Shown piece after piece: positions 58,999 to 60,016 of a stretch of DNA of 64,000 nt; the first letter of the stretch is position 1, and each line of letters starts with the position of its first letter. Position numbers and translations under genes: made by a program. Below the pieces are notes generated by a model. The model made no database searches. It was given only the letters and a program-made list of their open reading frames with translations, and had not been told where the DNA came from. The DNA comes from a virus. The stretch is taken from IMG/VR virus record IMGVR_UViG_3300029913_000003, positions 1 to 64,000 of that record; one strand, 5' to 3'.

Positions 58999-59513
58999 AT
59001 GTTAAATTTATTTGCTTCTTTTTTAAGTTTGTATTTTTCATATTGCGTAGGATATTTATTCATAATTTCTTTTGAATGTTTTATAGTTAAATAATCAAGA
59101 AATTCCAATTCATATTTATTAATAATATTCCAATCAGCTCCTTCTTCTATTAATAATTCCATAACATCATAATGATGTCTATCTGCAGCCCATATTAATG
59201 CACTTTTATTATCACAATCAACATAATCAATATTGGCGCCAGCATTCAATAGTTCTGTTGATATTTGTGCATATAAATTATAATATTTAGATATATTATT
59301 TTTTATATAACAACTTAAAATTGAACATTTAATTAACGGAGTTCTATTCATCCAATTTACATCAATATTATCAATAATACATCCATTATCAATAGCATTT
59401 CTTATTTTTTTTAATAATTTTATAGCATCTGATTCATAATATATTTCATCTTCTAAAATATAATTCAAATCAGAATTCATTATAGAAATCTCAAATTTTT
59501 TTAAATATTTCAT
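58995..59513 (-). CDS. family E cassette protein with ankyrin-repeat core
   Basis: Conserved termini; ANK-like repeats. Confidence 0.6.
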   Translation of the reverse strand: MKYLKKFEISIMNSDLNYILEDEIYYESDAIKLLKKIRNAIDNGCIIDNIDVNWMNRTPLIKCSILSCYIKNNISKYYNLYAQISTELLNAGANIDYVDCDNKSALIWAADRHHYDVMELLIEEGADWNIINKYELEFLDYLTIKHSKEIMNKYPTQYEKYKLKKEANKFNI

Positions 59514-60016
59514 AAGTTAAATTGTTTTGCTAATTTTCTATCTGGATATTTATTATAAAACCAATTCCAATAACCTTCCAAATCATTATATGGTAAATTA
59601 TTATTATAACATTGAAATTGTGTTACAGATTCTGGTAATTCTGGCAATTCAGATAAATTATTATTCTCGCATAAAAAATATTCTAAATTACTTGGTAATT
59701 CTGGCAATTCTTCTAAATTATTACCACCACAAGATAAATTTATTAATGATTTTGGTAATTTAGGCAATGTTTTTAATTTATTCTCATGAATATATAATCC
59801 TGTTAATGTATCTGGTAATTCTGGCAACGTTTTTAATTCATTATTACCACAAAATAATTCTTCTAAATTACTTGGTAATTCTGGTAATGATTTTAATTTA
59901 TTGTGATGACAATCTAAATATGTTAATGTATCTGATAATTCAGGTAAAGACGTTAAACCTTTATTAGCAAGATTGAGTTTTGTTATTATATTTTCAAATC
60001 TTTTTATATATTTCAT
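59510..60016 (-). CDS. family E cassette protein with YopM/IpaH-type (LPX) leucine-rich repeats
   Basis: Six or more repeats of LPELPxxLxxLxCxxNxLxx; conserved MKYIKRFEN / AKQFNL termini. Confidence 0.65.
   Translation of the reverse strand: MKYIKRFENIITKLNLANKGLTSLPELSDTLTYLDCHHNKLKSLPELPSNLEELFCGNNELKTLPELPDTLTGLYIHENKLKTLPKLPKSLINLSCGGNNLEELPELPSNLEYFLCENNNLSELPELPESVTQFQCYNNNLPYNDLEGYWNWFYNKYPDRKLAKQFNL

Follow-up and report, generated by a model that had tools for sequence, protein, structure and literature searches.

Doubly tagged cassette arrays of a huge phage carry an LPX-class leucine-rich repeat protein and may be relatives of the T4 internal-protein system

We analysed a 64,000-nucleotide stretch of DNA from IMG/VR virus record IMGVR_UViG_3300029913_000003 (positions 1 to 64,000; hereafter the window), in which a minus-strand gene at 59510..60016 encodes a small leucine-rich repeat (LRR) protein. 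The gene is the sixth of nine head-to-tail cassettes whose products have differing cores between a common N-terminal leader and a common C-terminal tail, and the genome that carries them is a huge phage of the Mahaphage type. The leaders of these cassettes and their homologs appear to grade into the capsid-targeting sequence (CTS) of the phage T4 internal proteins. The arrays may be an expanded relative of the T4 internal-protein system, with the LRR protein as a head-packaged, injected binder of a host protein; we put the chances of this interpretation at about even.

The LRR cassette and its repeat class

The gene runs from ATG to TGA and encodes 168 amino acids (aa), with exactly the boundaries given in the original prediction, which was made from the sequence alone. 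Both of its ends overlap the minus-strand neighbours by 4 nt (ATGA stop/start). These overlaps fix its place in a series of genes on that strand, and it is not an open reading frame (ORF) that arose by chance. The plus-strand ORFs lying over it (59527-59763 and 59767-59967) are low-complexity mirror artefacts. Directly after MKYIKRFEN the protein has a half repeat, ITKLNLANKGLTS, followed at residues 24-143 by six exact 20-residue units of the form LPELPxxLxxLxCxxNxLxx, which read in order LPELSDTLTYLDCHHNKLKS, LPELPSNLEELFCGNNELKT, LPELPDTLTGLYIHENKLKT, LPKLPKSLINLSCGGNNLEE, LPELPSNLEYFLCENNNLSE and LPELPESVTQFQCYNNNLPY; the last 25 residues are NDLEGYWNWFYNKYPDRKLAKQFNL. The tandem 20-residue LPX repeats that had been proposed are therefore present as six units in register plus a half unit, and the DNA has the matching 60-nt period (Tandem Repeats Finder: 59693-59941, 4.2 copies, score 218). 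A Pfam LRR scan, which had been suggested as a check, gave LRR_4 with E=1.4e-15 (57.4 bits, cutoff 27) and returned LRR families only, with no other domain. The AlphaFold2 model (32 homologs in the alignment) has seven parallel strands and a mean predicted local distance difference test (pLDDT) score of 94.4; confidence is low for residues 1-10 (block mean 56; residues 1-4 below 50). The isoelectric point (pI) is 5.1.

A phmmer search against the sequences of the PDB placed YopM first (4ow2, 3e-83; also 1g9u), with SspH2 (5e-42), IpaH3 (1e-30), IpaH7.8, SspH1, IpaH1.4/2.5 and SlrP among the top matches; the best-scoring eukaryotic LRR was fibromodulin (1.7e-13). Foldseek on the model retrieved the LRR domains of IpaH7.8, IpaH2.5 and SspH1 (TM ~0.77, root-mean-square deviation 0.9-1.4 Å, 37-43% identity), and its top 27 matches were exclusively IpaH, SspH or YopM. 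The protein is a small, LRR-only member of the LPX class (YopM/IpaH/SspH/SlrP type), and the claim that it belongs there and not with the plant or animal LRR classes was borne out, eukaryotic LRRs scoring 1e-13 or worse. Taken alone, it adds one more protein to a fold class already known.

The LRR domains of IpaH, SspH1/SspH2/SlrP and YopM share with it the 20-residue LPxLPxxLxxLxxxxNxLxx repeat and a variable concave face, which binds targets in the effectors. Unlike them, the phage protein has only 6.5 repeats and lacks both a NEL domain and the N-terminal secretion and helical-cap region; it has instead an 8-residue leader, a two-helix C-terminal cap and a K/Q-F-N-L tail, and is encoded by a huge lytic-type phage, not by a bacterium bearing a type III secretion system. 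It stops 25 residues past the last repeat, and Pfam gives no NEL in it. Since the first repeat begins at residue 11 and the first strand at residue 13, with only a 10-residue leader predicted to be disordered ahead of it, there is no room for the YopM/IpaH N-terminal region. A search for NEL in relatives, also suggested with the original prediction, found none among 120 homologs (95-294 aa; the best relatives in a collection of 5.8 billion proteins), as judged from their precomputed Pfam lists. LPX-type LRRs are thus not diagnostic of type III effectors: phages harbour a large population of small versions that consist of LRRs only.

Cassette arrays with two conserved ends

In order, the nine cassettes measure 136, 103, 114 (ankyrin), 142, 125, 168 (LRR), 172 (ankyrin), 163 (ankyrin) and 150 (ankyrin) aa, so that the LRR gene does lie inside a cassette-like array with ankyrin neighbours, as predicted. 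A second array of four cassettes carries the same tags; its first gene has no leader, which is found on 12 of the 13 array genes in the window. N-termini read MKY[IL]KxFE in all but two of these genes and C-termini read (A/T/S)x-K-F-N-I/L in all, around cores that Pfam assigns to ankyrin (four) and LRR (one) and otherwise leaves without a match. The ankyrin cassettes also carry Y-K-L-K-K-E-A ahead of K-F-N-I. At the junctions the end of one cassette runs into the start of the next with the consensus AAATAAATTTAACWTATGAAATATATAAAAACATTTGAA, which has 11 matches in the window against 0 expected. The nine-gene array begins 18 nt after a PPK2 gene, and the ATGA stop/start overlaps indicate that the cassettes are co-transcribed and translationally coupled behind it.

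An integron-type cassette array was considered and rejected, since the ATGA overlaps leave no non-coding space and the conserved junction is coding sequence. Unlike integron cassettes, the phage cassettes have no attC-type intergenic sites between them, and partial Pfam scans of the window found no integrase, only TnpB at a distance of ~46 kb.

The junction pattern occurs in 52 stretches on IMG/VR contigs of up to 330 kb. In 185,579 bacterial and archaeal species genomes it gave only 3 chance hits, in housekeeping genes. Related loci encode 136 unique doubly tagged proteins (median 114 aa) whose cores fall into 45 clusters unlinked by BLAST, the largest being SH3-like (45), ankyrin (15), a 'WLIPTDDRF' group (15) and LRR (4). 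The C-terminal logo of these proteins has K in 135/136, F or Y, N in 136/136, and I, L or V, and the leader MK[YH][ILV]Kx[FY]E stands on 131 of the 217 ORFs in these loci that end in K[FY]N[ILMV]. Many metagenomic LRR homologs retain MKYIKT[FY]E and K-[FY]-N-[IL] (for example KKYNL) with different codons, and others join a similar LRR to other ends. The LRR protein had no tblastn match among 50,697 phage records, which indicates that the family is not in deposited cultured phages at this sensitivity; the ankyrin neighbour had only weak matches to Wolbachia-phage ankyrins, and the first 50 kb of Tenacibaculum phage PTm1, whose portal makes it the nearest cultured relative, contain no tag family. 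Literature searches on MKYIK leaders, on huge phages with ankyrin or LRR proteins and on megaphage capsid targeting found no description of such arrays; as far as these searches reach, doubly tagged, translationally coupled cassette arrays are undescribed.

Leaders approaching the T4 capsid-targeting sequence

In T4, IPII and IPIII begin with MKTYQEFIAE/A, the CTS. Its first 10 residues are enough to bring a foreign protein into the T4 head; positions 4 and 7 are important to targeting and positions 8 and 10 to gp21 protease cleavage. The CTS is all that the otherwise diverse T-even internal proteins have in common (PMC9026906, PMC3012670). One of these proteins, IPI* of T4, is injected and inhibits a host restriction enzyme (PMC3012670).

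The leaders of the cassettes and their homologs appear, on sequence comparison, to form a graded series into MKTYQEFIAE/A, with MKYIKEYEEFILE/A among the variants. MKTYLEFIQE opens an LRR homolog (P0042), and MKRYLEFINE is the leader of three tandem genes on a 20%-GC phage contig (L218), where the LRR gene reads VKRYLEFIKE; this trio includes an LPX LRR protein and a 624-aa PolyA_pol/CCA-type nucleotidyltransferase. A cassette reading MKKYKEFINEA…KKFNM, flanked by MKYIK cassettes, lies in a K-F-N array of the window's own clade, and cassettes syntenic with the window array begin MKTYQQFNE and MKTFIQFNE. In the related phage LR756500 (462 kb) at least 27 ORFs begin MKYI.EYEEF[LI].E, 17 of the 27 with [LIV]-x-E at positions 11-13 and often with Ala as the next residue. 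The LRR gene of the window, finally, has MKYIKRFE, which has M1, K2, F7 and a Glu in common with MKTYQEFIAE and an aromatic residue at position 3. By a rough estimate from residue frequencies, an M-K-x-Y-x-E-F-I-x-E N-terminus arises by chance in about 1 in 10^7 proteins.

Relatives of the window's phage have T4-type head machinery, and leader-bearing genes lie close to it. LR756500 encodes (phmmer) a gp17 terminase (3e-32), a gp18 sheath (9e-21), a gp20 portal (4e-33) and a prohead protease (T4 gp21, 1.4e-8; Pfam Peptidase_S77, 42.6 bits, cutoff 27) fused to a long scaffold-like region. Three of its leader-bearing genes directly adjoin the (split) terminase gene, and its leader-bearing cargo includes four LRR proteins of a different 24-residue class, a DUF2201 metallopeptidase-VWA protein and a ligase-like protein. 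In many Mahaphage-like contigs, among them L228, a conserved 157-aa gene starting MKHLRKFEEL stands directly upstream of the portal, with genes for an S77 protease/scaffold and the major capsid protein a few kb further downstream of the portal; L228 has both the protease (phrog_207, 6.5e-32) and the major capsid protein. Locus L027, of the window's own lineage, has counterparts (44%) of genes found next to the portal in related phages.

Proposed packaging and injection of the binders

Every family member has three parts: a flexible 8-residue leader, MK[YH][IL]Kx[FY]E; a variable core (ankyrin, LRR, SH3-like and others, in 45 unrelated clusters); and a C-terminal helical hairpin with the terminus K-[FY]-N-[ILV]-COOH. 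We propose that the leader, as a putative relative of the T4 CTS, would send the protein into the prohead core, and that the LRR protein would travel in the head with the DNA and enter the bacterial cell at infection. Inside, its hypervariable concave face would bind a protein of the host (probably a defence or takeover target), the LRR protein serving, much as T4 IPI* does, as a stoichiometric inhibitor or decoy, and the tail may be a second, separately evolving address or docking signal. It is tempting to speculate that narrow LRR and ankyrin solenoids are suited to passage through the tail tube.

Like T4 IPI, IPII and IPIII, the cassettes have a short N-terminal leader common to otherwise unrelated small proteins, with an MK start, aromatics including F at position 7 and a terminal Glu, and near-T4 leaders occur in sister cassettes and homologs. 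They also resemble the T4-type hypervariable internal-protein loci in their rapid turnover between kept flanks and in having relatives with a T4-type portal and S77 protease. Unlike the three T4 proteins, they number dozens per genome, are fused by ATGA overlaps into long arrays, carry a second, C-terminal tag, have repeat-scaffold (ankyrin, LRR) and enzyme cores, are not uniformly basic and, in the window, have a leader without L/I-x-E. Giant phages offer a second parallel: in the phiKZ/SPN3US ejection and inner-body families, many packaged paralogs lose propeptides to a protease and are ejected into the host (PMC5694885, PMC7411985, PMC10052503). Those are large proteins, as opposed to doubly tagged cassettes of 100-170 aa, and we saw no sequence relation to them. 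The cleavage motif of the phiKZ/SPN3US ejection proteins is S/A/G-x-E.

Several observations weigh against packaging. The window leader resembles MKTYQEFIAE only loosely, the link running through intermediates; there is no [LIV]-x-E in MKYIKRFENIITK, whose sole Glu, E8, is preceded by R-F. The T4-type protease is seen only in relatives (LR756500 and L228), and the window holds no head genes. Array proteins range in pI from 4.7 to 9.1, against 9.3-9.5 for T4 IPII and IPIII, and the array lies among RNA-repair genes and not in a structural module. Finally, T4 internal proteins have no conserved C-terminal tag, and packaging by the leader leaves that of the cassettes unexplained.

There is one lead on this tag. 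The gp4-like head-completion protein of Mahaphage-like contigs (31% identical to PTm1 ORF001, E 9e-15) ends …LKKFN[LVI]-COOH in at least 52 loci, a tetrapeptide identical to the array tail; this match was noticed post hoc and comprises four residues only. Similar leaders go with two types of C-terminal tag, K-[FY]-N-[ILV] and …(A)DDFG[FLM][FLI]DN, and tagged cargo spans ankyrin, LRR and SH3-like binders as well as enzymes (metallopeptidase-VWA, nucleotidyltransferases, ligase-like). We tentatively suggest, at a likelihood below even, a modular two-signal payload system in huge phages of the Mahaphage type: dozens of cassettes per genome would combine a T4-derived leader with a C-terminal address (K-F-N-I/L or …DDFGFFDN), copied in the case of K-F-N-I/L from the gp4-like protein, and would be injected as a large, rapidly reshuffled library of host-protein binders. 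Were this so, it would amount to a two-signal form of the T4 internal-protein system, far larger and distinct in mechanism.

If the tags are packaging signals, a large and fast-evolving set of binders and enzymes would enter the cell before any phage gene is expressed, which would help to explain how phages of 300-700 kb meet diverse host defences and what part of their dark gene content is for. Leader and tail would then give a sequence rule for spotting injected phage proteins in metagenomes, and the cassettes would be a natural reservoir of compact LRR and ankyrin binders directed against targets in bacteria.

Cassette turnover between conserved flanks

The genes that flank the array are strongly conserved in related phages (aa identity: PPK2 90%, CCA-adding enzyme 93%, polynucleotide kinase (PNK) 87%, cREC 87%), whereas the array genes are only 38-71% identical and cassette content differs as well. 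The gene order in the window is PPK2-A-B-C(ankyrin)-D-E-LRR-G(ankyrin)-H(ankyrin)-I(ankyrin)-…-cREC, and in IMGVR_UViG_3300029983_000009 it is PPK2-A'-C'-D'-…-E'-Y-G'-H'-Z-…-cREC. There gene Y, of 127 aa and with no relation to the LRR, fills the LRR slot, and ankyrin I gives way to Z (SH3-like); with an unrelated gene in its slot between kept flanks, the LRR gene is a swappable cassette. By recombination at the ~38-nt conserved junction, entire cassettes can be acquired, dropped or exchanged. Compared with its closest ortholog, the LRR protein is identical at 47 of 54 scaffold positions (87%) and at 18 of 66 other positions (27%), and strand positions 9, 10, 12 and 14 of the repeats are almost wholly different. 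This is the pattern that would be expected of a diversifying binding surface.

The source genome is a huge phage

The window has 21% GC and is dense with small genes. Its RNA-repair set (RNA ligase, PNK/phosphatase, CCA-adding enzyme, cREC receiver domain and PPK2-HAD_SAK) brackets the cassette arrays, and an 817-aa protein resembles the eukaryotic major vault protein. Among the 50,697 phage records this vault-like protein matches only LR756500 (52%) and LR756501/3 (735 kb, 50%); the text of Al-Shayeb 2020 does not mention vault proteins (PMC7162821). In LR756500 the vault-like gene lies 4 kb from a tagged array. The exact LRR protein was found on 17 assembled contigs, six of which span 0.2-1 Mb; the neighbouring PPK2 is on a contig of 346,561 bp, and a relative from its 90% cluster is on one of 711,471 bp. 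The LR756500 portal is nearest to those of 634-735 kb phages, of PTm1 (~35% identical) and of Prevotella Lak phages. The 'Mahaphage' clade includes the largest huge-phage genomes and the Lak phages, with Bacteroidetes as predicted hosts (PMC7162821).

Phage-type gene content, vault-gene kinship, large contigs and the T4-type head genes of relatives establish the element as a huge phage with relatives of the Mahaphage type, and its host is most likely a bacterium of the Bacteroidota. That the source is a phage and not a giant eukaryotic virus had been predicted in part from the LRR itself; the source assignment stands on gene content, but the LRR does not serve as evidence for it, and the conclusion rests on other genes. 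A giant-virus origin was rejected, as counts of the mimivirus early motif AAAATTGA are 21 and 9 on the two strands against ~14 per strand estimated from composition, and the gene content is phage-like. A promoter scan of the window was uninformative in DNA of 21% GC (94 found, 91.5 expected). A transfer RNA (tRNA) with a CUA anticodon prompted a check for stop-codon recoding, which was rejected because reading TAG or TGA as sense gives no longer long ORFs.

Alternative explanations

The tagged proteins may instead be ordinary, unpackaged intracellular proteins made after infection, whose cores bind host proteins while the C-terminal module, perhaps with the leader, docks a common partner (a protease, chaperone or hub), so that they act as substrate adaptors. 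We regard this as the main rival to packaging and as possible, though not probable. The array shares a unit with PPK2 and stands beside RNA ligase, PNK, CCA enzyme and cREC genes, a typical counter-defence neighbourhood; the C-terminal module is structured and conserved over unrelated cores, two alternative tails (K-F-N-I/L and …ADDFGFFDN) occur on the same leader type, and the pI is mixed. The likeness is to poxvirus ankyrin-PRANC, F-box-LRR and ankyrin-SOCS-box adaptors, in which a large paralog family joins variable repeat scaffolds to a short conserved C-terminal docking module (for ankyrin-SOCS-box, PMC3779351). No F-box, PRANC or SOCS similarity was detected, however, Pfam giving repeat hits only, and the bacterial host implies no ubiquitin system. 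Unpackaged adaptors would also leave unexplained the gradation of leaders into the T4 CTS, including the L/I-x-E/A site in LR756500, and the leader-bearing genes beside portal and terminase.

It is unlikely that the conserved ends are mainly a DNA or RNA device, a 38-nt homology arm for shuffling plus a context for re-initiation, with the terminal peptides as by-products. The high conservation of the junction would fit such a device, as would the swapping of cassettes at junctions between related phages. So would the ATGA overlap, which is found in 101 of 148 genes and forces the last codon before it to NTA, and the tail Asn codon, which is AAC in 50% against a background of 12%. Against it, 45 of the 148 genes end in TAA without overlap, and genes at array ends keep a tag without a partner: the array-final genes retain the tail with no downstream partner (58058 ends TAA, 51342 ends TAG), and the first gene of the nine-gene array retains the leader with no upstream partner. 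In distant homologs the peptides are retained but encoded by other codons (KKYNL versus KFNI). In the leader, synonymous codon use is near background, and amino acid positions 1-5, 7 and 8 are fixed with position 6 free, which indicates conservation at the protein level. The AlphaFold2 models of the LRR protein and of its ankyrin neighbour both have a disordered leader, and both end in the same two-helix hairpin with a three-residue tail. We conclude that both cassette ends are protein-level signals that double as the recombination and coupling junction. The models make it unlikely that the N- and C-terminal tags pair with each other, as the solenoid separates them, one at each end, and neither model gives the leader an ordered structure.

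Bacteria use LRR domains as adhesins, and PTm1, with a portal related to that of LR756500, carries head-fibre-like appendages. The LRR protein could accordingly be exposed on the virion as a decoration or adhesin (a head fibre or tail accessory) that binds a cell-surface ligand, and in relatives leader-bearing genes do lie near structural genes; we consider this quite improbable, as the protein has no anchoring domain but only leader, solenoid and cap, the array is outside the structural module, and dozens of unrelated small cores with the same tags fit cargo better than a fixed structural position.

Least probable by far is the function first suggested for the gene, a type-III-secreted YopM/IpaH-like effector, possibly partnered by a NEL ubiquitin ligase, for the manipulation of eukaryotic host cells: the LRR class, the fold and the nearby ankyrin repeats speak for it, but the 168-aa protein has LRR hits only, the NEL domain is missing from it and from the lists of the 120 homologs, there is no N-terminal space for secretion, the cassette junction is absent from bacterial and archaeal genomes save the 3 chance hits, and the gene is borne by a phage whose relatives are predicted to infect Bacteroidota bacteria (PMC7162821).

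Other features of the window and related contigs

Coordinates are collected in Table 1.

Table 1. Features of the window and of related phage contigs; positions are those of the window unless another record is named.
Feature	Position	Strand	Basis or remark
LRR cassette gene (leader, 6.5 LPX repeats, C-terminal cap and tail)	59510..60016	-	ORF, Pfam LRR_4, PDB matches, AlphaFold2
N-terminal leader MKYIKRFE, 8 codons	59993..60016	-	array comparison, AlphaFold2, codon use
LRR solenoid, residues 11-143: seven beta strands, six full LPxLPxxLxxLxCxxNxLxx units	59588..59986	-	repeats, AlphaFold2, Foldseek
C-terminal module, residues 144-168: helices 146-156 and 158-165, tail ...AKQFNL-COOH	59513..59587	-	AlphaFold2
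Upstream junction: previous cassette end (…KFNI), ATGA overlap, LRR start	60002..60027	-	pattern, aligned junctions
Downstream junction: …QFNL, ATGA overlap, next (ankyrin) cassette start	59499..59524	-	pattern, aligned junctions
Array of nine head-to-tail tagged cassettes	58058..61871	-	ORFs, Pfam, aligned junctions
Second array, four cassettes, same tags; first gene without leader	51342..52751	-	ORFs, aligned junctions
PPK2 and HAD_SAK gene, heads the array's minus-strand unit	61890..63539	-	18 nt upstream of array; 90% aa in related phages
Hairpin, 20-bp stem between A and T runs; bidirectional terminator ending the array's minus-strand unit	57000..57047		
RNA-repair set, with phage-type RNA ligase	30195-31217, 54718-55656, 56284-57006 (+); 57249-57587, 61890-63539 (-)	+/-	ligase: phrog_968 3e-74; 42% identical to Microcystis phage Mic1
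Major-vault-protein-like gene, 817 aa	2531-4984	+	Pfam MVP_shoulder 5.5e-29, Vault_3 5.6e-9, Band_7
tRNA with CUA (amber-suppressor) anticodon	22963-23034	+	TAG = 3/87 stops among long ORFs
Second tRNA, 93 nt	41376-41468		found by Rfam only
Three tandem leader-bearing genes	L218 98-3252	+	20%-GC phage contig
LR756500 tagged ORFs, many ending …NADDFGFFDN	record 11706-17016 (= L056 26372-31682), 197835-201793, 312960-318055		
gp4-like head-completion protein	L228 8121-8648; equivalents in L221-L300	-	tail with the same tetrapeptide as cassettes
TnpB/OrfB_IS605-type protein, 485 aa	11271-12728	-	Cas12f-like TNB domain
MgtC-family protein	53381-54010	+	2.7e-34
SLOG/LOG-like 'lysine decarboxylase' family protein	20836-21360	+	
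MFK[VP]GD family copies	5602-7663	-	
MFK[VP]GD family copies	17016-17434, 20085-20607, 25890-27756, 28616-28840, 31638-31859, 41636-41893, 48330-48566	+	
Small membrane proteins with Y[LI]RKKKLQKIK-like tails	619-1685, 13405-14069, 15428-16531, 21406-22120, 23167-23592	+	

The TnpB/OrfB_IS605-type protein is a transposon-associated nuclease in a phage genome; an MgtC-family protein and a SLOG/LOG-like 'lysine decarboxylase' family protein are also encoded. The window further contains a second tagged multigene family, with at least 20 copies of 70-95 aa that start MFK[VP]GD[RK]VVCI, end (E)YRKxKLxKL and form overlapping arrays of their own. Small predicted membrane proteins of differing sequence have common C-termini like Y[LI]RKKKLQKIK, and the motif [YFI]xRKxKLxK[IL] also terminates many other small ORFs.

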